Shown piece by piece: positions 2,928 through 64,000 of a stretch of 64,000 nt of DNA. Where the stretch lies: positions 48,155 through 112,154 of the forward strand of contig DATDTD010000071.1 in the NCBI GenBank assembly GCA_035290965.1. Reading direction: 5' to 3'. How positions within the stretch are numbered: position 1 is the stretch's first letter; every line of letters starts with the position of its first letter. Both the position numbers and the translations under genes were made by a program. The DNA is from an archaeon. GTDB taxonomy: Archaea > Iainarchaeota > Iainarchaeia > Iainarchaeales > GCA-2688035. The notes beneath the pieces were generated by a model. The model did no database searches. It was not told the origin of the DNA and saw nothing but the letters and a program-made list of their open reading frames with translations.

Positions 2928-5900
2928 TCATTTTCCAAAGTATTCCTGCCAGTGCTTTATTTCGAATTCTTTTCCGCCTGTTTTTTCAAGGCTGCGGATG
3001 AACAGCTTTGCAAGCTGCTTGTTTGTAATCAATGGAACGTTAAAATCAACTGCGGAACGCCGCAGGGCATACTGCTTTTCAAGCTGTTTCCTGTTGAATT
3101 CCTGCGGAATGCAGATTACAAGGTCGAGAAGGCCTTTTCTCAAAAAAGTTGCAGTGTTGGGCTCTTTTTTTTCATGCTCCTTGAAAACCATTCTGCAGGG
3201 AATTGCATTTTTTTCGAGAAATTTCTGCGTGTGCTCTGTTGCGAACAATGCAAAGCCACGGTTTTTCAGAACTCGGATTTCCTCAAGCAAATCCTTCCTG
3301 TTTTCATCCCCGCTGATGCTTACAAGAATGTTTTTTTCAGGCATTGAAAAACCAGCCGCAATAATGCTTTTGAGAAAAGCGTCCTCAAAGCTTGTTGAAA
3401 GGCACGCCACTTCTCCTGTAGAAGCCATTTCAACCCCAAGAAGAGGGTCTGCCCCCTTTAGCCTGCTGAAGGAAAACTGGGGAGCTTTAACGCCCACAAA
3501 ATCAAGCTCGGGAAACTCTTCAGGCTTCAGGTTTTTTTCACCCATTACTGCCTTTGTGGCTGTTTCAATAAAATTCTTCCCGGAAATTTTTGAAACAAAG
3601 GGAAAGCTCCTGCTTGCGCGCAGGTTGCATTCAATTACCTTTACCTCATTCTGCTTTGCAATGAACTGAATATTGAAGGGGCCGTTAATCTCAAGCTTCT
3701 GCGCGATTTTTTCCCCTATTTCAAGAATCCTGTTCTTTGTTGCGGGATAGGTTTTCTGCGTAGGGAGGACAATTGTCGCGTCTCCGCTGTGCACGCCGGC
3801 ATTTTCAACATGCTCGCTTACTGCATAAACAAGAAGCCTTCCGTCCTGCGCAACTGCATCGAGCTCTAACTCCCTTGCATTCACAATGAATTTGCTCATT
3901 ATTACAGGATGTTCCGGAGAAAGAGCGGTTGCCTTTTTCAGGTATGAAATCAGGTCTTTTTCATTGAATGCAACGCTCATTGCGCTTCCGCTCAAAACAT
4001 AGCTCGGGCGCACCATAACCGGAAAGCCCACCTTGTTTGCAAAAACCACTGCATCTTTTTCAGCTGAAAGCTCTTTCCATTCAGGCTGGTCAATTCCCAA
4101 AGAATCGCAGAGAGCGCTGAACTTGTGCCTGTCCTCTGCAATGTCGATTGTTTCTGCTTTTGTGCCTAAAATTCTTGCGCCGGCTTTCTGAAGCTTCAAA
4201 GCAAGATTGTTCGGGATTTGCCCGCCCATGCTAATGATTATTCCTTCGGGATTTTCCTTTTCATAAATGTCAAGCACTCTTTCAAGGCTGAGCTCTTCAA
4301 AATAAAGCTTGTCGCAGATGTCATAGTCAGTGCTCACTGTTTCAGGATTGAAATTAAGCATTATTGTTTTTTTTCCGAGCTTTTTCAAGGCCTGGATTGC
4401 TGTTACAGAGCACCAGTCGAATTCAACGCTGCTTCCGATGCTGTAACTGCCGCTTCCCAAAACCAGGACCTGGTTTTTTTCTCCAAAGGAAATGTCGCTT
4501 TCAATTGCATTATAGGTTGCGTACAAATAGTTTGTCTGCGCGGGAAATTCAGCTGCAAGAGTGTCAATCTGCTTTATGAAAGGCAGAATCCCTAACTGCT
4601 TTCTTTTTTCCCTTACAACAAGCTCATCTTCACTCCCTGAAAGAATTGCAATCTGCTTGTCGCTGAAACCGAGTTTTTTTGCCTTCAGGAGCAATTCTTT
4701 TTCAATTCCCCTTTCCTTTACCTGTTCTGATGTTGCTATTATGTTTTTTATTTTTTCAAGGAACCATTTGTCTATTTTTGTGAGCGAATGGATTTTTTCA
4801 ATGCTCCAGTTTTTCTGGATTGCCTTTGCAATTGCAAAAAGCCTTTCATCGTTTGGGACTGAAATTTTTTTTTCAAGCCCCTTGAATTCAATGTTGTTTG
4901 CAATAAGGCCATACATTCCAATGTTCAGCATTCTCACTGCCTTCTGGACTGCCTCTTCAAAAGTCCTGCCTATTGCCATTACTTCTCCCACGCTTTTCAT
5001 TTCAGTTCCAATCAGATGATTTGCTTTCTTGAATTTTTTCAAATCCCAGCGCGGCATTTTTACTACAATGTAATCAAGAGCAGGCTCAAAGCACGCCTTT
5101 GTTTTTTTTGTAATGCTGTTTTCAAGCTCGAGAAGGCTGTGCCCCAAGCTGAGCTTTGCGGCAACAAATGCAAGCGGATAGCCTGTTGCTTTTGAGGCAA
5201 GCGCACTGCTCCTGCTTAATCTCGCGTTTACTTCAATAACCCTGTAATCAGAACTTTTTGTGTCAAGCGCAAATTGTATATTGCATTCTCCAACTATTCC
5301 AAAGTGCCTTATTGCCTTTATTGAAAGTTCGCGGAGCATGTGATATTCGCTGTTTGAAAGAGTCTGGCTTGGGGCGACAACAATGCTTTCTCCTGTGTGA
5401 ACTCCTAAAGGATCGAAGTTTTCCATGTTGCATACAGTAATGCAGTTGTCATTGACATCCCTTACAACTTCATATTCTATTTCCTTCCAGCCTGCAAGGC
5501 ATTCTTCAACAAGAAGCTGCGGGCTGACTTTGAAGGATTGTTCCGCGAGCTTTTTAAGTTCTTCCAGATTGTTTGCAAATCCGCTTCCTTTTCCTCCGAG
5601 CGCAAAAGCAGCTCTTACAATTACAGGAAAACCTATTTTGCTTCCTGCAGAGAGGGCTTCTTCAAGGTTTTTTGCGGGAATGCTTTTCGGAACATTTATT
5701 CCGATTTTCCGGAGTTCAAGATTGAACAATTCCCTGTCCTCTGTTTTCCTGATTGCATCAATCTGTGTCCCAAGAACCTTTACATTGTGCTTTTCAAGAA
5801 CTCCAGAATCATGCAGAGCAAGCCCGCAATTGAGGGCTGTCTGCCCTCCGAAACCAAGAAGAATTGCCTCTGGCTTTTCTTTTTCAATTATTTTTTCCAC

Positions 5901-6071
5901 AAACTGCGCGTTCACTGGCAGAAAATAAATTTTGTCTGCAAAGCCCGAGCTTGTCTGGATAGTAGCAATATTTGGATTGACAAGGACTGTCTCAATTCCT
6001 TCTTCCTTGAGAGCTTTTATGGCTTGAGAACCGGAGTAGTCGAATAGACGGTCTAATGGTTTAACAACCAA
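2928..6071 (-). CDS. carB: carbamoyl-phosphate synthase large subunit
   Basis: 1047 aa. Two ATP-grasp halves (…GGQTALN…, …EVNARLSRSSALASKATGYPLA…) and a C-terminal MGS-like domain. Confidence 0.95.
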   Translation of the reverse strand: MVVKPLDRLFDYSGSQAIKALKEEGIETVLVNPNIATIQTSSGFADKIYFLPVNAQFVEKIIEKEKPEAILLGFGGQTALNCGLALHDSGVLEKHNVKVLGTQIDAIRKTEDRELFNLELRKIGINVPKSIPAKNLEEALSAGSKIGFPVIVRAAFALGGKGSGFANNLEELKKLAEQSFKVSPQLLVEECLAGWKEIEYEVVRDVNDNCITVCNMENFDPLGVHTGESIVVAPSQTLSNSEYHMLRELSIKAIRHFGIVGECNIQFALDTKSSDYRVIEVNARLSRSSALASKATGYPLAFVAAKLSLGHSLLELENSITKKTKACFEPALDYIVVKMPRWDLKKFKKANHLIGTEMKSVGEVMAIGRTFEEAVQKAVRMLNIGMYGLIANNIEFKGLEKKISVPNDERLFAIAKAIQKNWSIEKIHSLTKIDKWFLEKIKNIIATSEQVKERGIEKELLLKAKKLGFSDKQIAILSGSEDELVVREKRKQLGILPFIKQIDTLAAEFPAQTNYLYATYNAIESDISFGEKNQVLVLGSGSYSIGSSVEFDWCSVTAIQALKKLGKKTIMLNFNPETVSTDYDICDKLYFEELSLERVLDIYEKENPEGIIISMGGQIPNNLALKLQKAGARILGTKAETIDIAEDRHKFSALCDSLGIDQPEWKELSAEKDAVVFANKVGFPVMVRPSYVLSGSAMSVAFNEKDLISYLKKATALSPEHPVIMSKFIVNARELELDAVAQDGRLLVYAVSEHVENAGVHSGDATIVLPTQKTYPATKNRILEIGEKIAQKLEINGPFNIQFIAKQNEVKVIECNLRASRSFPFVSKISGKNFIETATKAVMGEKNLKPEEFPELDFVGVKAPQFSFSRLKGADPLLGVEMASTGEVACLSTSFEDAFLKSIIAAGFSMPEKNILVSISGDENRKDLLEEIRVLKNRGFALFATEHTQKFLEKNAIPCRMVFKEHEKKEPNTATFLRKGLLDLVICIPQEFNRKQLEKQYALRRSAVDFNVPLITNKQLAKLFIRSLEKTGGKEFEIKHWQEYFGK

Positions 6072-6139: not shown

Positions 6140-7354
6140 TCAATAGGCTGTCACCTCTTTTATTTTCCAGATTATTGCCCGGTTAGGGGCTGTTTTTCCA
6201 ATTTGTTCCACAAGATTCTTTACTTCAAGCTGTTTTAATTTCTTTAATGTTTTTTGAACGCTGAAGTTTAGTTCATTAGCAATTCCTGATGTGGATGCGG
6301 AATTTCTTTTAAGGCATTCTATTATTTTTTGTCTAAATCTGTTTTCTTCATGCTTAGTGTATTTCGTTGCTTTAGTGGCAAGTTTTTCTAGTTTCAAAAA
6401 CTTTTTGCCTGAGCACAGCCCGATGTTTTGATAAAAATTTGTGATACTATACTGGTCTGTAATATTTAGGTACATTACGCAGTGTCGCCCGTCAACTTTA
6501 GTATAATACCTTGAAATAAGCGGTTCCCCTGCGTTAATATCGAATTCTTTTAACAACTCTTTTATCTGGCTTAAAAGCATCCTTAAAGAATCTGCAATTG
6601 ATTCATGCCTTGTTTGATAAAGATTAACTCCCTTTGCCCTAAATGATTTCGAATACATTACCGAACCGTCATCATCAAATATTGCTTTGAGGAAAGCCTT
6701 TTTGCAGGGCTTGCTGCCGTTCATAATCCAGGCAGGAACCAAATTTTTATTATAAATTTTGGGGGCTTGTGGAGCGCCAAATTGCAGCAGTATTTCGCCG
6801 ATTATCGAGGGATACCCTATCCGCGTGTTATTTTTTGTATAGGGCTTAATCCCAAACTGTTTCTCAACCAGTTCTTCAACCTCACACAGCAGTAAACTGT
6901 TTGTGTTGCTATATTCAAACTGCCTTCTTCTTGAACAAACAAACCCATCTCCAAAAACATGCCCAACCAATGAAGCAATATCCTCGTTTCCAGTTATTGG
7001 CAATTTTGTTTTTAATGAAAGCCCGGCACGTGTTTTTATCTCTTTAATATTTTTTTCAACCAGCTCCAGATTCAAATTTGCAAGTTCTGAGAGTTTAACC
7101 AATATTTTTTTAGGAATCGAATATTCAGACCTTTTCAGGCAGATGACAAAAGGATATGAAACCCCTAATTTTTCTGCAAGCGCATAATAATTTCCATTGC
7201 TCGCCTTTTCAGCAAGTTCTTTGCAAAATTGTTCCTCAAGAATGAATCTTGCAGAATCTGATAATTCCCAGAAATGCATTGTCTTTTGCATAGTTCTAAA
7301 TAATATTTTTTTTATTTTAAAACTGTTTCGGGACAGCAGATTTCCGCTAATCAT
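6140..7354 (-). CDS. free-standing LAGLIDADG-type homing-endonuclease-like protein with N- and C-terminal HTH/winged-helix domains
   Basis: Two LAGLIDADG-like motifs (LVGHVFGDGFV and LKAIFDDDGSV). N-terminal HTH (YALAEKLGVSYPFV), C-terminal wHTH. Its start overlaps the carA stop (ATGA). Confidence 0.65.
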   Translation of the reverse strand: MISGNLLSRNSFKIKKILFRTMQKTMHFWELSDSARFILEEQFCKELAEKASNGNYYALAEKLGVSYPFVICLKRSEYSIPKKILVKLSELANLNLELVEKNIKEIKTRAGLSLKTKLPITGNEDIASLVGHVFGDGFVCSRRRQFEYSNTNSLLLCEVEELVEKQFGIKPYTKNNTRIGYPSIIGEILLQFGAPQAPKIYNKNLVPAWIMNGSKPCKKAFLKAIFDDDGSVMYSKSFRAKGVNLYQTRHESIADSLRMLLSQIKELLKEFDINAGEPLISRYYTKVDGRHCVMYLNITDQYSITNFYQNIGLCSGKKFLKLEKLATKATKYTKHEENRFRQKIIECLKRNSASTSGIANELNFSVQKTLKKLKQLEVKNLVEQIGKTAPNRAIIWKIKEVTAY

Positions 7355-8439
7355 TTTTTTCCCTCTGCTATTTTCAAAAACTTGTCAAACAAAAAACCCG
7401 TATCCAAAGGCCCGGGATTTGCTTCTGGATGGAACTGCACGCTCATGAATGGCTTTGTTTTGTGCCGTATTCCCTCGTTTGTTCCGTCATTCAGATTTCT
7501 GAACCAGGGTTCCCATTCCTCTGAAAGTTTTTTTTCGTCAACTGCAAATCCGTGGTTCTGGCTTGTAATAAAGCATTTTTCCGTTCCCACAACAGTGCAG
7601 GGCTGGTTCTGGCTCCTGTGCCCGTATTTCAATTTGTAAGTGTCTGCTCCCGCGGCAAGAGCTAAAATCTGGTTTCCCAAACAAACGCCAAAAACAGGCT
7701 TTGAATATTCAAGGGCTTTTTTTATTGTTTCAATTGTAGCAGTGCATTGTTTGGGATCGCCAGGACCGTTGCTTATCATTATTGCGTCAAAATCAATTTT
7801 GCCGTTGAACAAATCAAAATCCCAGGGCACCTTGATTACTGAAGCGTTTCTTTCCAAAAGGCAGCGCACAATGCTGTTTTTTGCCCCGCAGTCAATGAGC
7901 GCGATTTTTACACCGCTGTTCTCATGAAAAATAGGTTCTCTGCAACTGACGTCAGCCACAAGGTTTTTTTTGTTAGGATCATTAAAAACTATTTCTTCGC
8001 CATCGAGCACAATCTTTCCTAACATTACTCCTTTTTCGCGGAGTTTTTTTGTGAGCGCCCTGCAGTCAATGCCAGTGATTGCGGGAATTTTTTCCTCGCG
8101 AAGCCATTCCTGAAGGGATTTTTCAGAGTTCCAGTGATTATGCTCAAAGCTGTAATCAGAAACAATCAATCCTTGTGCATGAATCCTGCTGCTTTCAAAG
8201 TTTTTTTCAAGATTGGATTCAAGGGCTTTGCCGGGAACACCATAATTTCCTATCAAAGGGTAGGAACAAACAAGAATCTGCCCCTCGTAACTCGGGTCTG
8301 TAAGGCTTTCAGGATAGCCCACCATTCCAGTGTTGAAAACAACTTCCCCTGAAATGCTTTTTTCAAAGCCAAAAGAAATTCCTGAAAAAACAGAAGAATC
8401 TTCCAAAACAAGTTTAATGCTTTTTTCTTGTTGCCGCAT
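7351..8439 (-). CDS. carA: carbamoyl-phosphate synthase small subunit (glutamine amidotransferase)
   Basis: Class I GATase triad region (GVCLGNQILALAAGA…HG) and the CPSase small-subunit N-domain. Confidence 0.93.
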   Translation of the reverse strand: MRQQEKSIKLVLEDSSVFSGISFGFEKSISGEVVFNTGMVGYPESLTDPSYEGQILVCSYPLIGNYGVPGKALESNLEKNFESSRIHAQGLIVSDYSFEHNHWNSEKSLQEWLREEKIPAITGIDCRALTKKLREKGVMLGKIVLDGEEIVFNDPNKKNLVADVSCREPIFHENSGVKIALIDCGAKNSIVRCLLERNASVIKVPWDFDLFNGKIDFDAIMISNGPGDPKQCTATIETIKKALEYSKPVFGVCLGNQILALAAGADTYKLKYGHRSQNQPCTVVGTEKCFITSQNHGFAVDEKKLSEEWEPWFRNLNDGTNEGIRHKTKPFMSVQFHPEANPGPLDTGFLFDKFLKIAEGKK

Positions 8440-8636: not shown

Positions 8637-9200
8637 ATGAAAAAAGGCTTTCTATTAATCATTTTTTTTAGCTTGCTTTTTTTGCCTGGCGCTTTTGCTA
8701 GCTACGGTATGATCTGTAATAGCAGTGCTCCGATTTTGTTGGTGGTGCAAAGTTATTCTTTTGTAGATGGAAATTTTTCTGTTAAACTGTTTAACAACAC
8801 TAACACAGATATTACTGTTGTTTCAACCCAGCCCCAAGGGGCTTTGGTTTTGGAGAGCGCTTCTAGCGGGCTAATTAAAAAAAATGAATTAATTAGCATT
8901 AGTGGAAAATACCCTCACAGAGAGATAAACGAAAACATTTTGTTATCTTATTTAAATCAAGCGGGAGAAAAAAAAGAATTAACTCTTAATTGCAGAGGAA
9001 GCGACCCAGATGTTGTAGATTCTGGAAACATGGCAAATTTTGTATTTCTCGCTTTAACTATCTTTTTCTTTGTGTCAAGTCTAATTTTAATTTGGTACGG
9101 ACAGAAAAAAGGAAAACCAACAATTAGAGCAATTGGAATTATATTGTTCTTATTTTTTTTATTAGCGCTGTTTCTTCTCCTCGTGCCCGTGCAGCCTTAA
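8637..9200 (+). CDS. small exported/membrane protein: signal peptide, extracellular domain, two C-terminal TM helices
   Basis: N-terminal hydrophobic leader (MKKGFLLIIFFSLLFLPGAFAS). C-terminal hydrophobic stretches. Convergent with protease gene A. Confidence 0.5.
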   Translation: MKKGFLLIIFFSLLFLPGAFASYGMICNSSAPILLVVQSYSFVDGNFSVKLFNNTNTDITVVSTQPQGALVLESASSGLIKKNELISISGKYPHREINENILLSYLNQAGEKKELTLNCRGSDPDVVDSGNMANFVFLALTIFFFVSSLILIWYGQKKGKPTIRAIGIILFLFFLLALFLLLVPVQP

Positions 9201-9215
9201 GAAACCAGCAGGTTT

Positions 9216-12200
9216 TTAGTTCCAACCTATTAGAACATTATAGTCTATACTAACAAGTTTTTTTGTAGGCTGTGATAGAATAGAATAAATTATGTTATAG
9301 TCTTGTCCAATTCTTTTATTACCACCATAACCTAGAATCCAACTGATTCCGGTAGGTTGGAGTGTTTGAATCGCTCCTTGAACAAAAGCTCTTTTTGAGT
9401 TTTCATCTGGGTCATTAGAACCAATATTCATATCACTAAAATAATTCCCTGAAAGGTTCTGAGTGTTAAGTGTTGCACTAAAAATATGAGATTCTCCTGG
9501 CGCTAGAGTTAATGGAACTGAAAGCCCCGAAATGTCTATTTCGGGTGGAGAATTAATGTTAAAAATATTCAAGTCTGCATTGCCAGTATTTGTTATATTA
9601 AAGTCTTGTGAAAGCATTTCCCCTTTTGTTATGCTTCCAAAATCCCATAAAAACGGTTGAATTGAAATGTCCGGGTTTCTAACAATAAAATTGTCCGAAA
9701 CCGCTTCACTGGTTAATACTCCGTCTGTGGCAATTATTTTAATTTTAGCATTATTACTAGGAGTAGCAAAATCAGCATTCCAAGAATAATTAGTGTCTGT
9801 TATGCCTATGGCTAAAGGATTCCAAGTTGCACCATTATCAGAACTGTATTCTAAAACATAAGACAAGTTATCTCCATCAAGGTCACTAGAATTCCAAGTA
9901 ATGGAATTTATGCCAGTCCAAATATCTTCGCTTGTCGGAGAAGTAATAGTTACAGTCGGAGCATTTGAACTTATTTGCCTCTCAGCCTTGATCAGGCCGT
10001 CGTATTTAACAATTACTTTATTAGTGTCAGTGTTGTAAGGGATAGCAAATACAAAAGCCGTTACATTAGTATCAATAGGTGGATTCGCATAGGGCAAAAA
10101 ATTGACGTTAAAATTAATGTCATTTAATACCTGCTCGTTGCTGTCCAAAACTTGGATAGAATAGGGTCCAGCTTCAATTTCGCTAGGATATCCATCAACT
10201 AAATACCATGGATCTAGTTCAACTGTATTATTTTTGTCCACAGTTCCACTCAATAGCAAAACTTGTTCTGGTTCTGTGTGTGGAATCATAAAAAGATTCA
10301 ATAAATGTGTGTATTCATCTTTTGCAATCCACTTTCCTAACTCGCCACTTTGGTAGGACATTAGACTTGCCGCATTGATTCGTTCTTTATTACCACACCA
10401 AGAGTCATTACAATCGACCCAAAAACCGTTCACGATCTGGCCATTTGGATCGGGATTAGGACAACCAGAACATCCTTCTGGCCTGCCACAGTCGCCACCA
10501 ATAGTTATCTCGTCGCATAATCCAAATGTATGACCGACCTCATGAGATGGTGTTACCGCACTTAGTTCGCTTAAAGATGAATTACTTGTTGTTGGGCTAG
10601 AAATGCCAGACCAATTTTGCCAGTAATTACTTAAAAGCCAACCATTAGGAGTAATTCCTACTACTCTGTCGTAAGATTTCAAACCGCCATAAGCCAAGTA
10701 TTCTACAGTATAAAGCCTGTGGAGCGTAAAAATAACTCCCTTATCTGGAATAAACTCCAAGGGACTCAATCGGCCATATATTACAGGATCTTCTCTGTTG
10801 TCAATTGCATTTTCTGGAAGCGGATAAACCGCCTTCATATATTCCTCGCTATGAGAAATAAAAAAATTGAAGAGGTCCCGATCTAATAGTTCCACTGGCA
10901 CGTAAATTACTTTGAACCCGTAAGTTCTTGTTACATTCAAATCTACTGTTTTTGTGTTGTTGTTTTCATTTGTTTCTGATATGCTTGCATAGGGGTCTAC
11001 CATCGCACTTATTTGGTATGTTCCTGACGTTGAATATGGTGTTGGATAGAAATCAATTGTTCTAAAGTCTGCGATTTGATTTGTGTCGTAATAGTCTTGC
11101 CCGTTGTATGATAGCTTTGCTGTTACTACTTTTGGACTGCCCGTGTTTATTACTTTTACTCGCACTACCGTTGCTTTATCAGTGATAAGATTTACATCTT
11201 CAATAACTTGAATTGGTTTTACCCATTCAATGAATAAATCGCCTTCAGGAGCAGCGGTAATCTGGAACTGGTTAGAACTTGCTTGAATGGAGTTTCCATA
11301 ACTGTTCGTAACATTTACATCAACATAATAATCTCCGGGAGAAACATTTGTTGTGTTCCAAGAATAAGAGCAAGTTATTGGATTTGCTGTTACTGGTTGG
11401 AAGGTATCTGGCTGGTTGTCCATTACTGCTCTCACATCATCACCACTCGACAAAAGCATTGCTAAAAGAAAATAAGTTTCATGATTAAAATCGATTGCTT
11501 GACTGGTTATAACACTAATAAATGGGTAAGCATTGGGTAAACTGTTAAAATTAAAATCCGTTGTTACATTAGACCATTGAGACCCATTGTATTTTGCGAC
11601 AAAGCGTATTGGGGGAAATGTAGAACAGATACTATACGCCAGCAAGCCGACTTCCTCCTTTTCTGAAAACCCGTTAAGCGCACTGCCTGTACACCCAGAA
11701 GCAGTTTTTAGAGAAGGTAAATTTGCAACAATGCTGTTTGTTTTAACCCATTGGTTGCTGACTATTTCCCAAGAGCTATTCCCGTCTGATGCTAAAAGAT
11801 AAGGTTTGTCATTGTAATATCCTACAAAATAACTCGCATTTGGAGTTCCGCTCCCAGTAAAAATAAGCGAATTGGAATCCGTTAACCATTGTGAAGTTGC
11901 ATCGTCCCAGCGATATAATCTGTTTGGTGAAGAAACAATTTGCACAAAAACGGAATTGTCATAGTTATAAACGAGCGTAGATGCGAGATTGCCAGTCTGC
12001 CCATAATCTGCAGTATCATACCCTGCAGTTTTATCTTCTTCATAAAATAAGGAATAGGGCGAGTTTAGATAATTTGGAGTTCCATTCTTTTTGATAGAAT
12101 AAACATAAATCGTGTTTTTTCCATAAACCGCCCAAATTCTCCATAACGTGTCGTCATCTTTTTTCACCATAGTTGTATACTCGGCCCGACCCGGAAGATT

Positions 12201-12506
12201 GTTAGGATACAAATTTCCAACATTAACACCAGCATTTTGCCAGACATACCTCGAAGAATAAGTGCAGGAACTTAAATTCAAATCAGCAATAAAATGCTCT
12301 CGCGAACCAGGCGTTCCCCCATAATATAAATTAAAATGCTGGTTCGGATTGTTTGTTGAATCAGAATAAGTCCAAGAAATAGTCTGCGGATTACCTGCAG
12401 TTTCAGGCATAGAACCAACAGCCAAAGTTTGAGAAGAAAAAACACTCGGCAAAAAACAAAAAAAAGCAAACAAAAAAAACAATTGCCAACAAAATATTTT
12501 TTTCAT
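9216..12506 (-). CDS. giant secreted multidomain metzincin-like zinc protease with CARDB/Ig-like domains (copy A). Probable start at the internal Met preceding the signal peptide.
   Basis: Signal peptide MKKIFCWQLFFLFAFFCFLPSVFS. HExxH zinc motif SHEVGHTFGLCDE plus Met-turn SLMSY. CARDB-like block (DLFIEWVKPIQVIEDVNLITDKATVVRVKVINTG…NENNNTKTVDLNV). Paralog of 58685..62632. Confidence 0.8.
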   Translation of the reverse strand: MKKIFCWQLFFLFAFFCFLPSVFSSQTLAVGSMPETAGNPQTISWTYSDSTNNPNQHFNLYYGGTPGSREHFIADLNLSSCTYSSRYVWQNAGVNVGNLYPNNLPGRAEYTTMVKKDDDTLWRIWAVYGKNTIYVYSIKKNGTPNYLNSPYSLFYEEDKTAGYDTADYGQTGNLASTLVYNYDNSVFVQIVSSPNRLYRWDDATSQWLTDSNSLIFTGSGTPNASYFVGYYNDKPYLLASDGNSSWEIVSNQWVKTNSIVANLPSLKTASGCTGSALNGFSEKEEVGLLAYSICSTFPPIRFVAKYNGSQWSNVTTDFNFNSLPNAYPFISVITSQAIDFNHETYFLLAMLLSSGDDVRAVMDNQPDTFQPVTANPITCSYSWNTTNVSPGDYYVDVNVTNSYGNSIQASSNQFQITAAPEGDLFIEWVKPIQVIEDVNLITDKATVVRVKVINTGSPKVVTAKLSYNGQDYYDTNQIADFRTIDFYPTPYSTSGTYQISAMVDPYASISETNENNNTKTVDLNVTRTYGFKVIYVPVELLDRDLFNFFISHSEEYMKAVYPLPENAIDNREDPVIYGRLSPLEFIPDKGVIFTLHRLYTVEYLAYGGLKSYDRVVGITPNGWLLSNYWQNWSGISSPTTSNSSLSELSAVTPSHEVGHTFGLCDEITIGGDCGRPEGCSGCPNPDPNGQIVNGFWVDCNDSWCGNKERINAASLMSYQSGELGKWIAKDEYTHLLNLFMIPHTEPEQVLLLSGTVDKNNTVELDPWYLVDGYPSEIEAGPYSIQVLDSNEQVLNDINFNVNFLPYANPPIDTNVTAFVFAIPYNTDTNKVIVKYDGLIKAERQISSNAPTVTITSPTSEDIWTGINSITWNSSDLDGDNLSYVLEYSSDNGATWNPLAIGITDTNYSWNADFATPSNNAKIKIIATDGVLTSEAVSDNFIVRNPDISIQPFLWDFGSITKGEMLSQDFNITNTGNADLNIFNINSPPEIDISGLSVPLTLAPGESHIFSATLNTQNLSGNYFSDMNIGSNDPDENSKRAFVQGAIQTLQPTGISWILGYGGNKRIGQDYNIIYSILSQPTKKLVSIDYNVLIGWN

Positions 12507-12588
12507 TTTACGCCCCTTTTTTTTATTTCCGCACAAACTATTAGTTCTGGTTTGCATCAAAGATTGCTAGCGAGTTTGTTAATCCTTT

Positions 12589-13434
12589 TTAACAGTCGCT
12601 TGCAGTGATTATTCCTGCGTTAACGTCAATGAAACAGCTTCCTGAATCATTGCCTTTTCTTACAAACAAGGTTTTTGTCAAACCGGCAACAGTGCCAGTG
12701 CTTGTTATTACAGTAAAATTGTTCGCTTTTATTTTGAATGCACTGAACTCTTTGTTCTGGCTTACATTTGTATCACTGTTCAAAGAAATTTTTCCTGTTC
12801 CTGTGGCAGTTATTGCAATGTTACCGTTTATTGCAGCAGAAGTAATTGTTCCGGTTGGAGTCGAAAAATTAATGCTCGTTGCAATATTTGGAGTAGTAAT
12901 AGTTGGAGTAATCGAAAAAACCGGAACAGTTCCAGAACCAGTAACAGTACCCCAAAAAACACTTCCCGCACCATTAACAAGCGCCCTCATCCCACTGGTA
13001 GAAGAAAGAGCAGTCCAAACATTCGGAGAATTTGCAACCAAAACACTGCCAGGATTAACGCTCGACAAGTTTGTTCCACCGGAAGAAACACCAATTTGAC
13101 CCTGTCCGCCTCTGAAATTGTTCGGGCCATCAACAAGAGAACCGTTAACAGATAAGCATAGCCAATAGTCTTGGTTGTAATTGAGGTTTAGTTGGTCTAA
13201 ATCTCCAAGCAACAGATTGAATGTGCTGTCTTGGATAGCGCCTGTGTAATTGTGGTCAAAAAAGACTCCGTTCGAACAAGAGTTTTGATCCGAAATTTTT
13301 ACGCCCAAATCTCCGTTTGACAAGCCTTCTACTTTTCCCTGCAAAGACATTTTCGTAGGCTGAGTTGCTAAAACAAAACTAAAAAAAATCAGGCTAACTC
13401 CAATTAGTGCTAACGCTAAAAAAAACTTTTTCAT
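12589..13434 (-). CDS. secreted Thr/Ser/Gly-rich adhesin-like protein (copy A partner)
   Basis: Signal peptide (MKKFFLALALIGVSLIFFSFVLA). Low-complexity Thr-rich repeats. N-terminal block QDSTFNLLLGDLDQLNLNYNQDYWLCLSVNGSLVDGPNNFRGGQGQIG shared with 63138..64000. Confidence 0.65.
   Translation of the reverse strand: MKKFFLALALIGVSLIFFSFVLATQPTKMSLQGKVEGLSNGDLGVKISDQNSCSNGVFFDHNYTGAIQDSTFNLLLGDLDQLNLNYNQDYWLCLSVNGSLVDGPNNFRGGQGQIGVSSGGTNLSSVNPGSVLVANSPNVWTALSSTSGMRALVNGAGSVFWGTVTGSGTVPVFSITPTITTPNIATSINFSTPTGTITSAAINGNIAITATGTGKISLNSDTNVSQNKEFSAFKIKANNFTVITSTGTVAGLTKTLFVRKGNDSGSCFIDVNAGIITASDC
13091..13302. repeat. ~210-bp segment about 90% identical at nucleotide level to 63787..64000, including a stretch of ~60 identical nt. 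Dispersed repeat inside paralogous genes.
   Basis: Direct comparison of the two regions read from the sequence. Confidence 0.85.
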
Positions 13435-53090: not shown

Positions 53091-53126
53091 AGTGGGTTTT
53101 ATATAGTTTTTTTGCCTAAATCAAAC

Positions 53127-55912: not shown

Positions 55913-55966
55913 TATTCTATATAGAATAGGTTTATAAACCTAATGCAATATATTCTATATAGAATA
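55913..55966. repeat. two identical perfect 16-bp palindromes TATTCTATATAGAATA (55913-55928 and 55951-55966) immediately upstream of the transposase gene
   Basis: Read directly from the sequence. Each contains a TATATA core. Confidence 0.85.
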
Positions 55967-55984
55967 CAAGGAGTGTTTTTTATT

Positions 55985-58276: not shown

Positions 58277-58693
58277 ATGAAAAAACTAGTGTTATTGGCC
58301 GTTTTAGTTCTGATTCTTATTGTAATACTTTTTGGCGTATTTTGGAGTAATCTGTTTGTGCCGCGAGTTAATCCAAGAGCAGAGCCTTACTTTGATTTTT
58401 CAAAAGCGGTTAATGCTCCGAACACAATTATTGTTTCGCAAAATTTGAGGATTCCACAAGGTGCCGTTTATACTGCTGGAATCTTTGCTGAAACAGCAAC
58501 AGGAATAGACGAAAACTGTGTAGAGATTCAAGCAAACGACCCAGTTACATTTACTGTTCACGAAGGCAAGCTTCTGCAAACAAACAAAGTAAGTACAACT
58601 AACATTTATTACAAGTGTGTTTCTGGAGAAACAATAGAAAAAAACACATGCCCGCTCTTTTGTACAATAAGTTTTGGAAAAGAACTAACTTGA
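58277..58693 (+). CDS. small secreted protein (138 aa), convergent with and overlapping the 3' end of protease gene B
   Basis: N-terminal signal/TM segment MKKLVLLAVLVLILIVILFGVFW. Cys-containing C-terminal part. Confidence 0.5.
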   Translation: MKKLVLLAVLVLILIVILFGVFWSNLFVPRVNPRAEPYFDFSKAVNAPNTIIVSQNLRIPQGAVYTAGIFAETATGIDENCVEIQANDPVTFTVHEGKLLQTNKVSTTNIYYKCVSGETIEKNTCPLFCTISFGKELT

Positions 58694-61600
58694 ATAATAT
58701 TTCCAGCCTATAAAAAGATTGTAATCTACGCTAATTATTTTTTTTACTGGCCGTGGTAAAATAGAATAGGTTATGTTATAGTCCGGTCCTATGACTTTTT
58801 TTCCACCATATCCAACAATCCAGTCTATTGTTGGGGAGAGCACTTCAAAAGTTGTTACGTTAGAGTCTAATAATTGTCTATTAGAATCGTACAAATATGT
58901 AGTTACTTTATAGTTTCCCGACATTTTGTTTCCTTTATCCCAATAATTGAAAAGTGTTTGTGTATCTCCAGCAAAAAGTGTTGTAATATGATTGTGCAAA
59001 TTTGTGTTATTGTCTTGTGAATCTGTAATTACGCTGTTAATGTCTAAGTTTGTGTAGGTTACTCCTGAATTAAAGTTTGTAATCACAGGATAAATTCTTA
59101 CTCTTTCAGTTAGATAATACGCATTTTTGTCCGTTGAAATGTCACTAACTCCTATTCTGGTAACATTAACTAAAACAGTTTCATTGAAATCAGCATTATT
59201 AATGGAAGAAACAGTTAAAACAATTTCAAATAAGCCCGCTTGGCTTGTATTAATGTTCCAACTTGCATTGTTTGAACTTGATTCAAAAATATTTCCTAAA
59301 TTTACTGTTAAAGGGTTGGCAGTTGAAAGTCCTTGAGGAAGATGAATGGTAATGTTTGCATCGCGTAAAGGCGAGTTTTGAGTTGTTACAAGTGCATTCA
59401 AAGAAAAAGAGTTTGGATAATTTATTTCATACGGCGCTGAAACAGCTACACTTATTTGTGGAGAAACTTGTTGAATGTTTCCGTCAACAAAAATTGTTTT
59501 TATTGACTCGTTAGGATCGTTTGAACTAATATTAATATCACCAGAATAACCACCTAAAATAGGCAAAATATCAATAGTTGCAGTAAAAGTTTGCGATTCA
59601 TTTGGTTGCAGAGTTAGTGGGAAAGAAATGCCTGCAATGTCTATGGTCGGAGAAGAATTAATACTAAAAAGATTTAAATCAGCGTTTCCAGAATTAGTTA
59701 TAGTAAAATTTGATTCTAGAATTCTTCCTTTAGCCTGTCTTCCAATATCCCAGAGATAGGGTGAAAGTTCTATGTTTGGGGCTTTTATTGTAAATGTTCC
59801 TGAGTTATTATCTCCTGTTAAAACTCCGTCCGTTGCAATAACTTTGATTTTGTAAGTATTTTTTGGGTCAACCTCTTTGACACTCCAAGTATAATTTTTG
59901 TCAGTAACATCTAAGGCAATGGGATACCAGGAAGCTCCATTGTCAAAAGTATAAAGTAAGGAATAACTCAAGTTATTGCTGTCTGAATCGTTTGCACTCC
60001 ATTGTATTGAATTCGTATCAGTCCAAACATCGCCTTGTTTTGGATAGACCACAGTTACAGTCGGCGCAACAGAACTAACAATTCTTTCAACTTTTACATT
60101 GCCACCATATTTTCCAACAATTTTGTGAATATTTGAATTGTAATCGATTGCAAAATCAAAAGCAGTTGTATTAATGTCTTTTCCCCAATTCAAATCACCC
60201 AAAAAAGGAGGTCCAAAATTGACATCTCTTATCACTCCATTGTTACTATCTTTAAGTTCAATAGTATAATTTCCATCTGTAATTCCATAGGGATAACCGT
60301 CAGTTAAATAAAAGTCATAAAAGGAAATATCTCCGTTTGCGTCTATTATGCCTCTAATCAAAATTATTTGAGGGTCGATAGGTCCGTTAGGATCTAACTT
60401 CTTCAAAATTTGAGTATAAGACTCTTTTGAAGCCCATGAAAAACTGTCTGCATCCCCCATAAAGCTATGCCAAGACACAACAAAGCCATTAAACTGATTA
60501 GATGGTTCGCCTGTTTTTCTACTATCATTCTTGCGGACTGAGAAACCATTAATGTCCATATTTCCAATACAACTTTCAGGGTCAGAACCAGCTCCAAAAC
60601 AATTGTTCGGAAAAGGATTTCCGCATCCCCCTACACTACTTAATTGATTGTTTTCATCTATCCAAACACTTTGTTTATATTCATCGCAAAGATTGTAAGT
60701 GTGACCTAACTCATGTGCTGCAACGCCAGAAGCAAGGGAGGAATACTCAAGCAGAGCACTTTTAGTATGAGGGACAGTAAAGCCTCCTTCTGAATAATAA
60801 AAATGGTTAGCAAGCCAACCTTTTGGGACAACTAATATTCCTCTATCCACATTTAAGTGTCCTGAGTTAATCTGAGTGTCTAATGCGGAAAGCACTAAAG
60901 AGGGGCACCACCAAGGCAATACGCATCCAATCGAAGTAAGACCGGGGTCAAACGGGGTTTTTACTGGAACAATTTCAAGTTTATTTTTTGCTATTGGGTA
61001 AGTATCAAGCAAAAAGGTTGATAGAGTATTAACATCGTTTAGATACTTATCTAAATTAGGGTAATCGTATCTAAAAAATGCTACTCTTAATCTATCAGTG
61101 TTAATCACATTTACATCGACTGTTTTTGTGTTGTTGTTTTCGTTTGTTTCAGGGATTTGATTGGCATCGTCAACTATTGCAGTTATTTGGTATTTTCCTG
61201 GCGTTGAATATGGGCTTGGATAGAAATCGAGTGTATTAGAATCACTAATTGGTTCAGTTATATTATAGTCTTGTCCGTTGTATGTTAGTTTTGTTCTGAC
61301 TGTTGCTGGATTGCCTGTGTTTTTTACTTTTACTCTTACTACTGTTGCTTTGTCTGTTACTAGATTTACATCTTCTACTACTTGGATTGGTTTGATTGAT
61401 TCAATGTATAAATCGCCTCTAGCTACGCGATAGTTTATTTTATTCTGAATGTAGTTGCCATTGATTTGTGCTCTTATGCTGAAAGAATAATTTCCATCTG
61501 TTGAGGGCGCTTGAACAGAAAAAGAATAAGTTCCCGTACCAATCTGAGTTGCATTTTTTGCAGTCCAAGAATCAGGGTCTTTTAATTTATATTGAATTTG

Positions 61601-62632
61601 GCTTAATCCAGTTTCTGCAAAATCATTACCCGAACTATTCACTGCAAATTGAACATTCATATCTTGGCTCGGATAAAAAGAGCTATTCATCGTTGGAGAT
61701 GTTATTATAATGGAGAATGGCTCGTTGTAATATGTTCCTAAAACACCTTGGGTCGTTCCGGTGTAAATATTTCCATCATAAACAGCAAAAGCACTTTGCC
61801 GGTAAAAATTAAAAGCAACTGAAAAAATATTGCTTGTGCTATCATACGTCCAAACTTCACTATAATCCTCTCCAGTTCCAATATAAAGATTTCCATCATA
61901 AACTGTGAGAAAATTATTAAAGTTCCAGTATTGTGATTCCCTCCAAGTTAAAGAAGACCAGATGCCATTTTTATAAGTTCCAATATGTCCATATTGTCCA
62001 GCATAAAGATTTCCATCATAAACCGCAAGAGAACGAATTGCGCTTCCTTTATCTCCTAAATTAGCCCATATCCCACTAGCAGCATTATAAGTTCCAAAAA
62101 CGCCATCTTCGTTTCCAGTAAAGAGATTTCCATCATAAACCGCAAGAACATTAAAAAAGCTATTAACTACTCTAGTCCAAACTTTACCATCATAGGTTAG
62201 TAATCCACCATATTCAGGATGCCTCCAATTAGGATTTACCGATGCATAAAGATTTCCATCATAAACGACTAAATCTTCTATTTCATATCCTTGTAATATT
62301 CCTTCAGTCCAAATACCAGTAATATTGTCATAGGAACCCAAAACATTAGCGTCGCCCGGTCCCCCTAATCCACTACTTCCAACGAAAAGATTTCCATCAT
62401 AAGAAGCAAGAGCAGTAGTAGGGTAACCAGTGTATCCTTTTGGCACTAAAGAAGTCCAAACTCGTGAAGCACTGTTATAAGTTCCTAACCCGTTTTGTAG
62501 AGTGTAAAGGTTTCCATCATGAACTGCTAGAGAACTTATTCCAGTCCCAATATCTCCTAAAGAAGTCCAAGTTCCAGCATAACTGTTAAAAGAAAGAAGA
62601 ACCAGAAAAAATAAAATCAACATTCTTTTCAT
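58685..62632 (-). CDS. giant secreted multidomain metzincin-like zinc protease with N-terminal 7-bladed YDGNLY beta-propeller and CARDB/Ig-like domains (copy B)
   Basis: Signal peptide MKRMLILFFLVLLSFNSYAG. Seven (V/A)YDGN(L/I)(Y/F) repeats. CARDB-like block about 70% identical to copy A. HELGHTYNLCDE zinc motif. C-terminal module shared with copy A. Confidence 0.8.
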   Translation of the reverse strand: MKRMLILFFLVLLSFNSYAGTWTSLGDIGTGISSLAVHDGNLYTLQNGLGTYNSASRVWTSLVPKGYTGYPTTALASYDGNLFVGSSGLGGPGDANVLGSYDNITGIWTEGILQGYEIEDLVVYDGNLYASVNPNWRHPEYGGLLTYDGKVWTRVVNSFFNVLAVYDGNLFTGNEDGVFGTYNAASGIWANLGDKGSAIRSLAVYDGNLYAGQYGHIGTYKNGIWSSLTWRESQYWNFNNFLTVYDGNLYIGTGEDYSEVWTYDSTSNIFSVAFNFYRQSAFAVYDGNIYTGTTQGVLGTYYNEPFSIIITSPTMNSSFYPSQDMNVQFAVNSSGNDFAETGLSQIQYKLKDPDSWTAKNATQIGTGTYSFSVQAPSTDGNYSFSIRAQINGNYIQNKINYRVARGDLYIESIKPIQVVEDVNLVTDKATVVRVKVKNTGNPATVRTKLTYNGQDYNITEPISDSNTLDFYPSPYSTPGKYQITAIVDDANQIPETNENNNTKTVDVNVINTDRLRVAFFRYDYPNLDKYLNDVNTLSTFLLDTYPIAKNKLEIVPVKTPFDPGLTSIGCVLPWWCPSLVLSALDTQINSGHLNVDRGILVVPKGWLANHFYYSEGGFTVPHTKSALLEYSSLASGVAAHELGHTYNLCDEYKQSVWIDENNQLSSVGGCGNPFPNNCFGAGSDPESCIGNMDINGFSVRKNDSRKTGEPSNQFNGFVVSWHSFMGDADSFSWASKESYTQILKKLDPNGPIDPQIILIRGIIDANGDISFYDFYLTDGYPYGITDGNYTIELKDSNNGVIRDVNFGPPFLGDLNWGKDINTTAFDFAIDYNSNIHKIVGKYGGNVKVERIVSSVAPTVTVVYPKQGDVWTDTNSIQWSANDSDSNNLSYSLLYTFDNGASWYPIALDVTDKNYTWSVKEVDPKNTYKIKVIATDGVLTGDNNSGTFTIKAPNIELSPYLWDIGRQAKGRILESNFTITNSGNADLNLFSINSSPTIDIAGISFPLTLQPNESQTFTATIDILPILGGYSGDINISSNDPNESIKTIFVDGNIQQVSPQISVAVSAPYEINYPNSFSLNALVTTQNSPLRDANITIHLPQGLSTANPLTVNLGNIFESSSNNASWNINTSQAGLFEIVLTVSSINNADFNETVLVNVTRIGVSDISTDKNAYYLTERVRIYPVITNFNSGVTYTNLDINSVITDSQDNNTNLHNHITTLFAGDTQTLFNYWDKGNKMSGNYKVTTYLYDSNRQLLDSNVTTFEVLSPTIDWIVGYGGKKVIGPDYNITYSILPRPVKKIISVDYNLFIGWKYYSS

Positions 62633-62679: not shown

Positions 62680-63147
62680 TTATTGGTTCAATTTTTCGTC
62701 CGGTATTCTTAGTCCCTGTGTTATTGTTTCAATGTCTTTGCTTGTTTGCAGGCTCGCTATGTTTTTTCTAATGTCGTTTTTGAATGCGACAAAGTTGTCT
62801 ATTGCTTTGTTTTGGAAAAAGAGAATTGTGTCTTGAATGTTACCTGTTTCCGCAAGCTTCTCCAAAATTTCTCCAAAAGAAACGCTTAGGACTGCTTGGA
62901 CATCTCTCTTGACTTCAAAAGAAGCAGTCAAATCATTCTTTTCAACTGACAAACAAGATGCATATACTTGAACTGTCTGGGAAGCAAAATCAGTAATCAC
63001 AGACTCGTTTCTGCAATCTAAAGATTCTGCTTTTGCATTCAAAACATCTACTTGGTCTTGCGCAATAGATTGTCCTTCTGTTAAACTAAAAGCCACTGGC
63101 AAAGACAACAACAGTATTAGAATACAAATTATTTTTTTTATGTGCAT
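62680..63147 (-). CDS. small secreted protein (155 aa)
   Basis: Signal peptide MHIKKIICILILLLSLPVAFS. Lies between protease B and the Thr-rich partner gene; its start overlaps the partner gene's 3' end. Confidence 0.5.
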   Translation of the reverse strand: MHIKKIICILILLLSLPVAFSLTEGQSIAQDQVDVLNAKAESLDCRNESVITDFASQTVQVYASCLSVEKNDLTASFEVKRDVQAVLSVSFGEILEKLAETGNIQDTILFFQNKAIDNFVAFKNDIRKNIASLQTSKDIETITQGLRIPDEKLNQ

Positions 63148-64000
63148 TGAAAAACCCCTCCGTCAGTTACACCACAATTGTATGGTGTGCCGTTTGGCGA
63201 ATACATTGTTAAATTTCCATCCGCCTTAATCACTGTCTTCATTCCAGCAATATCCCCCGTATTGTTTACTCTAAAAAAATTCTTATCTGCACTCGTGTTC
63301 CTGATTAAGAAAGAGTCTTCAAAAGAACCTAGTACATAATCATCGTCGTTTGTTGTTGTGTCTGTTATTGTTATGAACGGTTTGATATTGGAAATTGTTG
63401 GGTTTACAGAAAAAGTTTTTACACCGGAAACAGTTTGACTAGTGTTTAAAGTGCAAATATTGCTGACTGCAACACTGGTTGTTGGACCATTGGAAATATT
63501 GGCAAAATAACCCGTTGGAAAAACCAAGCTAGTGCTTCCAACAGAACTGGAACTAATCGGAACCATTAATTCTTCGCCAAAAGAAATAGCCTGTCCGTCC
63601 GGAATTAAAAGCCCAGAATTAAAACGGGTAGTAGAAGAAAAAGTCTTTACCACCGTAATTGTTTGGGTTAAGTTCCTGCCAATATCCAAAAAATAATTTT
63701 GCATGTTGGCATCAAAAACACTCCAAGAAGTCTGCCAATTAGTATCGCCGCTGCTGGAACCAAAAGAACCATTAATATCTTCCATGCCAATCTGGCCCTG
63801 TCCGCCTCTAAAATTGTTCGGACCATCAACAAGAGAACCGTTAACAGATAAGCATAGCCAATAGTCTTGGTTGTAATTGAGGTTTAATTGGTCTAAATCC
63901 CCTAACAATAGATTGAATGTGCTGTCTTGAATAGCGCCTGTGTAATTGTGGTCGAAAAAGACTCCGTCTAAGCAGGAGTTTTGATCAGAAATCTTTACTC
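63138..64000 (-). CDS. secreted Thr/Ser-rich adhesin-like protein (copy B partner), N-terminus beyond window end
   Basis: Shares QDYWLCLSVNGSLVDGPNNFRGGQGQIG and LLGDLDQLNLNYN with 12589..13434. The frame remains open to position 64000. Confidence 0.6.
   Translation of the reverse strand, partial: VKISDQNSCLDGVFFDHNYTGAIQDSTFNLLLGDLDQLNLNYNQDYWLCLSVNGSLVDGPNNFRGGQGQIGMEDINGSFGSSSGDTNWQTSWSVFDANMQNYFLDIGRNLTQTITVVKTFSSTTRFNSGLLIPDGQAISFGEELMVPISSSSVGSTSLVFPTGYFANISNGPTTSVAVSNICTLNTSQTVSGVKTFSVNPTISNIKPFITITDTTTNDDDYVLGSFEDSFLIRNTSADKNFFRVNNTGDIAGMKTVIKADGNLTMYSPNGTPYNCGVTDGGVFQCT
63787..64000. repeat. second copy of the ~210-bp near-identical repeat (see 13091..13302). Runs to the window edge.
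   Basis: Direct sequence comparison. Confidence 0.85.

Follow-up and report, generated by a model that had tools for sequence, protein, structure and literature searches.

Two large proteins share a C-terminal module

We analyzed a stretch of 64,000 nucleotides (nt), referred to below as the window, from an archaeon of the Iainarchaeota (contig DATDTD010000071.1, positions 48,155 to 112,154 of the forward strand; GenBank assembly GCA_035290965.1). The window encodes two large putative proteases, here called A and B, and both end in a similar module of ~45 amino acids (aa), the tail, which is the subject of this work. A preliminary description of the window, made from the sequence alone, had reported this module, and translation and BLASTP showed that the coordinates and sequences given for it were correct. 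The two proteins and their modules are as follows.

9216..12506, minus strand: protein A, 1096 aa (open reading frame [ORF] 9216-12560; the likely start is the ATG at 12506)
9219..9356, minus strand: module of protein A, 46 aa, PTGISW...LIGWN, translation PTGISWILGYGGNKRIGQDYNIIYSILSQPTKKLVSIDYNVLIGWN; stop codon at 9216-9218
58685..62632, minus strand: protein B, 1315 aa, with a core as in A and a different N-terminal repeat region
58688..58834, minus strand: module of protein B, 49 aa, PTIDW...FIGWKYYSS; the C-terminus of B is PTIDWIVGYGGKKVIGPDYNITYSILPRPVKKIISVDYNLFIGWKYYSS

The two modules match position for position, as had been described, save for one 1-residue indel at the start and five extra residues (KYYSS) that end B. 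Protein A, named 'CARDB domain-containing protein [archaeon]' at NCBI (HLD59035.1), begins with MKKIFCWQLFFLFAFFCFLPSVFSS and runs from a signal peptide through an N-terminal region, a CARDB domain, an HExxH core, an FN3-like domain and a choice-of-anchor-D-like Ig domain (residues 942-1035) to the tail, while protein B has an insert of ~205 aa between the last of these domains and its tail. Because of this insert, BLASTP reported the tail as a high-scoring segment pair of its own (31/49 residues, 63% identical, E=1e-15), separate from that of the shared body (42% identity over 703 aa). Thus, the module keeps its position at the extreme end of the protein despite a different preceding context.

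The tail had also been described as more conserved than its Ig-like neighbors. We found that this holds, modestly, relative to the FN3-like domain (52.6% identity between A and B) and the choice-of-anchor-D-like domain (51.9%), compared to 62-65% for the tail, but not relative to the CARDB domain, which is more conserved than the tail (68.8%); the catalytic core is 28.8% identical, and ~10% of all 47-aa windows of A and B are at least as identical as the tail.

The HExxH motif (A, residue 655, HEVGHTFGLCDE; B, residue 640, HELGHTYNLCDEY; in both, HE[VL]GHT[FY]xLCDE[IY]) is the sole basis for labeling A and B as putative proteases; a Pfam scan of the two proteins gave no match to a peptidase family, Peptidase M64 (PF09471, with the motif HExxHxxxGxxDEY) included. 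The domain preceding the tail reaches 41.8 bits in A (residues 942-1035) and 41.1 bits in B with the choice-of-anchor D model NF012200 (E ~1e-10), short of the curated cutoff of 45 bits, and the Pfam model HYDIN_VesB_CFA65-like_Ig reaches its own cutoff on it; judged by these matches, it is best described as choice-of-anchor-D-like. The choice-of-anchor D family is named for its position ahead of alternative anchors. A homolog of A, P0003 (649 aa), belongs to the same CARDB/HExxH/FN3-like family and has no tail, ending in its place in an amphipathic hydrophobic stretch, ...FWFRFLERLPNILPRIRYLLGLVYS; an ending unlike the tail at the same position is consistent with alternative anchors.

The module is portable among unrelated exported proteins

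We ran a profile built from three tail sequences against 1.84 billion cluster representatives and obtained 31 matches at E<=1e-3. Four of these were repetitive proteins with multiple partial matches and were set aside; the other 27 were single full-length matches. In 26 of these 27 carriers, the envelope of the hidden Markov model (HMM) places the end of the module within 0-3 residues of the C-terminus. The 27 carrier clusters (at 50% identity) include at least five unrelated N-terminal architectures, listed here with the carriers that represent them.

CARDB/HExxH family, as in A and B: P0002, P0006, P0008, P0010, P0011
Peptidase_M64-type, with HEFGHSFGGLxDEY: P0015, P0024 and several fragments
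NosD/beta-helix, with the same M64-like motif: P0023
S8 subtilase: P0019
HEYGH, with a Cys-rich region: P0016
TSP3-repeat fragments: P0012
610-aa protein without a family: P0033 (depositor label Woesearchaeota)

For P0015 and P0024, the M64 assignment is supported by PF09471 scores (35.7 and 34.1 bits) above the cutoff of 26. The full-length carriers start with signal-like hydrophobic N-terminal segments. The module is therefore not restricted to two paralogs, a restriction that the preliminary description had offered as one ground for rejecting a wider role. Nor is it a known domain: the tails of A and B had no match in Pfam or NCBIfam at E<=1, the 27 tails had none beyond noise in the same databases at E<=10, and a profile search of the sequences in the PDB likewise gave no match at E<=10. 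From the 27 carriers with at least five architectures, together with the lack of a known domain, we conclude that this acts as a portable C-terminal module rather than a passenger domain. This agrees with the earlier suggestion of a functional tag, although anchoring itself is something that we infer.

Only P0019 (L007 1495-5937, minus strand, which is the same as L022 10001-14434, plus strand) has the module in an internal position, at residues 1116-1162 of 1477. There it is followed by a 314-aa extension that is homologous (E=1.2e-14) to proteins of 665-669 aa encoded, in two other loci (L011 and L009), between the carrier and the gene NB described below. P0019 thus looks like a gene fusion of a carrier and its neighbor, as judged from this homology, and its internal module implies that a free C-terminus is not strictly required.

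Degenerate DNA patterns for the module were found in only two GTDB species representatives, both metagenome-assembled genomes of Candidatus Iainarchaeum, and in five metagenome loci, all of which encode carriers already known from the profile search; the tail family is therefore rare. A word-index protein search with one tail or with all 27 found nothing new, although this method is insensitive for queries of 50 aa. We term the hosts Iainarchaeota-type DPANN archaea, and the module family appears from these sequences to be confined to this one lineage.

One locus in a Ca. Iainarchaeum metagenome-assembled genome is rearranged (JAFCCL010000009.1; L008 275-1465, plus strand). It has an ORF of 396 aa in which an integrase is fused in frame to a TSP3-like Asp repeat and a full tail ending ...LLGWNWYYTN*. 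The first ~330 aa are an apparently complete tyrosine recombinase (motifs HQFRHSRATYL and ARYIHL, by eye), and the ORF starts 48 nt past a tRNA-Arg gene (L008 153-227). Two origins of this fusion are conceivable: an integrated element that landed in, or carries, the 3' terminus of a gene with the tail, or a chimera made in assembly.

The module is a tandem duplication under selection at the protein level

In an alignment of the 27 tails, a Pro 2-4 residues upstream is followed by a lead strand, [IV]x[WYF]x[LIV]GYGG, and then by xKxxGxDYN[IV]TYS[LI], xxQPxKK and LxGxDYN[IV][LI]LGW, often with a terminal xYYx[EDN]. Almost no variation is seen in the second G of GG, the Asn of the first DYN, the Q, the P and the last G. 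The module of A scores 82-108 bits with the tail HMM. By hhalign, the halves that contain the first and the second DYN are homologous (probability 94%, P=1e-7, 14 columns). A ~19-residue unit is therefore duplicated in tandem within the module, with consensus units KxxGxDYNhxYSL and KKLxGxDYNhLLGW. In A, the lead strand and GYGG precede the two ~19-aa units KRIGQDYNIIYSIL and KKLVSIDYNVLIGW.

As the preliminary description had stated, the module has no transmembrane (TM) helix: within the last 60 aa, the maximum Kyte-Doolittle mean over 19 residues was 0.83 in A, 0.70 in B, and at most 1.03 in 15 carriers. The longest charge-free run in the tails is 9-17 residues, and there is no basic cluster at the C-terminus. 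Among 28 tail residues that are identical in A and B, 10 are encoded by different codons; thus, it is the peptide that is conserved, by selection at the protein level. These synonymous differences, together with those in the NB domain (see below), rule out recent gene conversion or DNA exchange as the source of the conservation of either.

The structure prediction suggested earlier was of no help, since AlphaFold2 gave no usable fold for the module. The tail alignment alone yielded no secondary structure, with a predicted local distance difference test (pLDDT) score of 53, and in a model of A residues 855-1096 the tail had pLDDT values of 35-47, compared to 85-95 for the FN3-like domain. In this model, the choice-of-anchor-D-like domain beside the tail was also badly modeled, and the alignment was shallow. 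Failure to fold in these models could mean that the tail may fold only on a partner or as an oligomer. Two proposed relationships of the tail did not survive. Homology to part of the NB domain ('FNLLLG' vs. 'DYNVLLG') was not significant: hhalign P was 0.03 with the whole tail and 0.017 with the repeat unit, which did not improve on control domains in the same test (P=0.027-0.047). A likeness to half of a choice-of-anchor-D-type Ig domain was a product of misalignment by MAFFT and was not significant either (hhalign P=0.14).

NB genes accompany the carriers

Upstream of both A and B lies a gene of the family that we call NB.

12589..13434, minus strand: NB_A, 281 aa; next gene upstream of A, same strand
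62680..63147, minus strand: 155-aa secreted protein without a family, between NB_B and B
63138..64000 and past the end of the window, minus strand: NB_B, with 330 aa over the full contig; second gene upstream of B, same strand

NB proteins are secreted or anchored by the N-terminus. NB_A consists of an N-terminal hydrophobic segment, the NB domain (QPTKMSLQGKVEGL...FNLLLG...LNLNYNQDYWLCLSVNG...FRGGQGQI) and a variable C-terminus. The domain occupies ~100 residues after the hydrophobic segment, with the consensus PTxMSLQGxVEGLxxGDLGVKxSDxNSCxxGVFFDxNYxxAIQxxxFNLLLGxxxDLNLNYNQDYYLCLYVNGELxxGPxxFRGGQGQI, and it matches no Pfam, NCBIfam or PHROG family. The N-terminal regions of NB_A and NB_B are 79% identical over 149 aa, compared to only 42% for A and B; over the ~100-aa domain, protein identity is 92% (96% over the core, by eye), and among the loci of A, B and P0008 it is 92-95%. 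Different codons are used for 15 of 69 identical residues of NB_A and NB_B, and these synonymous differences point to strong purifying selection, not recent gene conversion. The C-terminal parts vary: an 887-aa member matches PHROG tail-fiber families (E=5.5e-11), and another has YadA-head-like repeats.

We ran the NB HMM over all loci collected for this analysis (~330 kb of sequence) and counted linkage over distinct carrier genes with enough flanking DNA. An NB gene was found on the same strand, no more than two genes away, in 10 of 10 such carrier genes, with at least five types of body.

A, CARDB/HExxH: window
B, CARDB/HExxH: window and L002
P0002, CARDB/HExxH: L006
P0008, CARDB/HExxH: L016
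P0010, CARDB/HExxH: L011
P0016, HEYGH: L009 (C-terminal fragment of NB at the contig edge, homologous to the NB of L011)
P0019, S8 subtilase: L022
P0023, NosD/beta-helix: L018
P0024, M64-like: L017
P0033, no family: L019 (NB directly downstream)

The HMM had no match elsewhere in the ~330 kb, which includes the other ~60 genes of the window, and the single tail locus without an NB gene nearby is the rearranged L008. The linkage is thus strict, and the option of partner binding, which had been raised for the module from the start, would fit it. We also found that the identity matrices of tails and NB domains correlate (r=0.68, Mantel p=0.027), a correlation that shared phylogeny could produce.

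Enzyme bodies appear to behave as cassettes between conserved flanks

On the other side of A and B, convergent genes for small membrane proteins run toward the tail.

8637..9200, plus strand: DM_A, 187 aa; convergent with A, with 15 nt separating the two stop codons
58277..58693, plus strand: 138-aa protein, TM segment at the N-terminus; convergent with B, 9-nt overlap with its 3' end

DM_A combines a signal peptide with a ~110-aa domain in which Cys is conserved and, at the C-terminus, two hydrophobic helices; most members of the DM family have these helices as well. Members are convergent to six carriers of two enzyme types (A, P0009, P0010, P0015, P0024 and P0011), with the 3' end 2-23 nt from the carrier stop codon except at P0011, where DM is one gene further off. 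The remaining carriers have other small membrane proteins at this position, and the 138-aa protein beside B has no detectable homology to DM. The proteins of 665-669 aa in L011 and L009 make up a third family of neighbors.

Two loci from the same JGI sample (3300041085), L010 with P0015 and L021 with P0011, share their flanks (L010 1-273 vs. L021 1-274, 85% DNA identity; L010 3682-5733 vs. L021 5950-8001, 90%) and differ in the tail-bearing enzyme between them, which is a 920-aa M64-like protein in L010 and a 1527-aa CARDB-type protein in L021, with the tail terminal in both. Thus, the enzyme body appears to act as a cassette between constant ends. The two contigs also end at one common position immediately upstream of the gene, which may be the site of a repeated NB gene.

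Downstream of P0010 (L011 11991-15628, plus strand) lie genes for a TrbC-like small protein, a T2SSE-type ATPase and two T2SSF-type membrane proteins. This set resembles a type IV filament-like assembly; it was seen at one locus, and we claim no link to the tail.

A possible role in docking or retention

We tentatively propose, from sequence and gene context, that the module is a noncovalent docking or retention tag on exported enzymes, and rate this proposal a shade below an even bet. Multi-domain enzymes with signal peptides, mostly proteases, would leave the cell by Sec export with the tag at their end, and the exported tag would then bind a surface component and so hold the enzyme at the cell. 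The best candidate for the receptor of the tail is the N-terminal domain of NB, which itself would be held in the membrane through its N-terminal hydrophobic segment, if this is uncleaved, or be built into a fiber, and DM might provide a second or alternative anchor. That the NB domain is the specific partner of the tail is conceivable in view of the linkage, but we regard it as doubtful.

Several observations fit this proposal. A constant tail on variable enzymes, next to a constant NB domain on variable fibers, is what would be seen if two constant surfaces met while the variable parts did the work. The domain immediately before the module in A is choice-of-anchor-D-like, which we count in favor of anchoring. 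Lack of a tail structure in the AlphaFold2 monomer models is compatible with folding on a partner. In its most extended form, the proposal would be that tail, NB and DM are the three parts of an enzyme-display system, new to science, in Iainarchaeota-type DPANN archaea. In this system, an internally duplicated, beta-rich tag would dock interchangeable secreted proteases onto a fiber or anchor encoded next to each of them, and the bodies would be swapped as cassettes between the NB flank and the tail/DM flank; we consider this form unlikely.

Other observations weigh against docking on NB. The NB domains of the P0010 and P0024 loci are 85% identical and their tails only 37%, so that an NB partner would have to recognize the tail through the few invariant motifs. 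There is one NB gene per carrier, which differs from a scaffold with many receptor sites, and the linkage could reflect a pair that functions together without contact through the tail. DM is known at six loci only. The failure of AlphaFold2 to fold the tail is weak evidence for folding on a partner, because the alignment was shallow and the adjacent Ig-like domain was modeled poorly as well.

We considered that the tail might instead anchor the enzymes to the envelope, with its two ~19-aa aromatic/Asp/Asn-rich, hairpin-like repeats binding an S-layer glycan or another surface polymer and NB being displayed alongside rather than serving as receptor. Near-identical NB domains beside divergent tails fit a ligand other than NB, and a tandem repeat with invariant D-Y-N and aromatic positions, C-terminal on secreted enzymes and free of a TM helix, recalls the CW_binding_1 or choline-binding, SLH and GW repeats, which are also ~20 residues long, rich in aromatic residues and Gly, and C-terminal on exported enzymes without a TM helix. 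However, CW_binding_1, SLH, LysM and GW usually come as at least three tandem repeats and the module has just two; neither these nor any other Pfam or NCBIfam repeat matched the 27 tails at E<=10; and the module differs further in its archaeal host and its gene linkage to a candidate protein partner. Envelope binding by itself would leave the 10/10 linkage to NB unexplained, and we think it rather unlikely.

If the tail were a C-terminal pro-domain or an aid to secretion that is cleaved off once it has served in export or folding, it would be comparable to the bacterial pre-peptidase C-terminal (PPC) domain (PF04151), an appendage mostly on secreted peptidases of several clans, or to the C-terminal domain (CTD) of the type IX secretion system (T9SS). 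Nearly all carriers with a recognizable catalytic domain are indeed peptidases, of several clans, and the conserved Pro 2-4 residues ahead of the module could mark a boundary or processing site. Yet the module matches neither PF04151 nor the T9SS-CTD models (TIGR04183/PF18962), and at 45 aa it is much shorter, half the size of either; the T9SS CTD is a beta-sandwich of ~80-100 aa from Bacteroidota-type hosts. The module also occurs on bodies with TSP3 repeats only or with no family (P0012, P0033), it is internal in P0019, and no dedicated secretion genes are consistently found nearby. A pro-domain is, on this evidence, improbable.

About as poorly placed, and slightly less probable again, is a homo-oligomerization module of the foldon kind that would bring the enzymes into dimers or trimers. 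The tail is short, internally duplicated, probably beta-rich (by its sequence pattern only) and without a monomer fold in AlphaFold2, and its NB neighbors include the tail-fiber-like member noted above. Oligomerization would not account for the linkage to NB and DM, however, and nothing else about the bodies, which are large and unrelated to one another, points to obligate oligomers.

It is very improbable that the tail has no specific function and is a remnant of domain shuffling or a recombination arm for cassette swapping. The body swap between the conserved flanks of L010 and L021 and the integrase ORF fused to the TSP3 and tail end in L008 could be taken that way, but the synonymous differences in conserved residues (10/28) and the invariance of the motifs across 27 clusters, down to 30-40% identity, point to selection on the peptide. 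Finally, a sorting signal for an archaeosortase- or exosortase-like transpeptidase, as the preliminary description had considered, is barely credible despite a position at the extreme C-terminus of exported proteins and after a choice-of-anchor-D-like domain, given the lack of a hydrophobic helix and basic cluster, of any match to PGF-, PEP- or other CTERM models, and of an archaeosortase- or exosortase-like gene (by Pfam match) among those of the 64-kb window, and given the internal copy in P0019.

Comparison with known systems

Among known systems, the closest counterparts of the proposed docking tag are dockerin and cohesin in logic, the cell-wall-binding repeats in repeat size and composition, and C-terminal sorting domains in position. 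Like the type I dockerins of cellulosomal enzymes, whose scaffoldins bear cohesins, it is a short, noncatalytic, duplicated C-terminal tag on varied, interchangeable secreted hydrolases, and like the dockerin it may have a conserved partner, as the NB linkage suggests. Dockerins are ~70 aa long, compared to ~45 aa for the module, which does not match Pfam (the dockerin family is PF00404), lacks the dockerin Ca-binding loop pattern (duplicated loop-helix segments of ~22 aa), and looks beta-rich with a repeat KxxGxDYNhxYSL. Moreover, a scaffoldin carries multiple cohesins, while each module-bearing enzyme has its own adjacent candidate partner gene.

The signals of PGF-CTERM/archaeosortase A, PEP-CTERM/exosortase and LPXTG/sortase, like the T9SS CTD, share with the module an extreme C-terminal position on unrelated exported cargo, and in A the module stands after the choice-of-anchor-D-like domain. 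However, PGF-CTERM, PEP-CTERM and LPXTG signals consist of a motif, a TM helix and a basic tail, an arrangement absent from the module, which also matches no NCBIfam model; its surroundings show no processing enzyme, and P0019 has it internally. Tags that target or anchor secreted hydrolases by their C-terminus are well known. What is new are the parts, namely the tail, the NB domain and DM, and the cassette arrangement of one candidate partner per enzyme.

Other genes of the window

The archaeal genes of the window include those for a proteasome subunit, Spt5-NGN, ribosomal L10/P0 and P1-type proteins, SecE and FtsZ; no tRNA or Rfam families were found in it. We noted several further features that lie apart from the tail.

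836-2167, plus strand: RuBisCO large-subunit gene
6140-7354, minus strand: 404-aa ORF with a weak LAGLIDADG_3 match, between carA (7351-8439; carbamoyl-phosphate synthase small subunit), which it overlaps by 4 nt, and carB (2928-6071; large subunit)
~13.5-37 kb: purine/folate/one-carbon run (FGAM synthase, AIR carboxylase, SAICAR synthase, adenylosuccinate lyase and synthetase, GMP synthase, IMPDH, SHMT, FolD, GAR transformylase, AICARFT/IMPCH, GARS)
53112-55730, plus strand: large methyltransferase/restriction-type gene (Pfam N6_Mtase, MmeI_Mtase, Eco57I, TaqI_C)
55943-57175, plus strand: DDE_Tnp_1 transposase gene

The 404-aa ORF may be a free-standing homing endonuclease inserted in carAB. 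The transposase gene lies beside the methyltransferase/restriction-type gene, a few small ORFs downstream of B, and its called length varies between contig copies (396 vs. 410 aa). The purine/folate set is fuller than is usual for DPANN archaea.

Possible implications for the surface biology of Iainarchaeota

The tail, the NB domain and DM are three unannotated families, deposited under labels such as 'hypothetical' or 'CARDB domain-containing'. We found no description of the module in literature on Iainarchaeota, on DPANN archaea together with dockerin, or on choice-of-anchor domains; in a paper on cannulae (PMC12518558), Iainarchaeota appear only as a name on a tree. All three families could become profile models, and the pairing of tail and NB provides a concrete protein-protein hypothesis that does not require culturing of the organism. 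Should the tail turn out to be no more than a glycan binder or a pro-domain that is cleaved off, it would still be a new domain family, of an ordinary kind.

Iainarchaeota are among the less reduced DPANN archaea and are thought to live on extracellular organic matter. To our knowledge, cell-surface organization and feeding in DPANN archaea are largely unknown. A docking or retention tag, if that is what the tail is, would make up, with the candidate partner gene strictly linked to it, the first enzyme-tethering system described for this group, one that retains several families of large secreted proteases; if the three-part display arrangement also proved true, it would amount to an archaeal version of the cellulosome principle that bears proteases and uses unrelated components.

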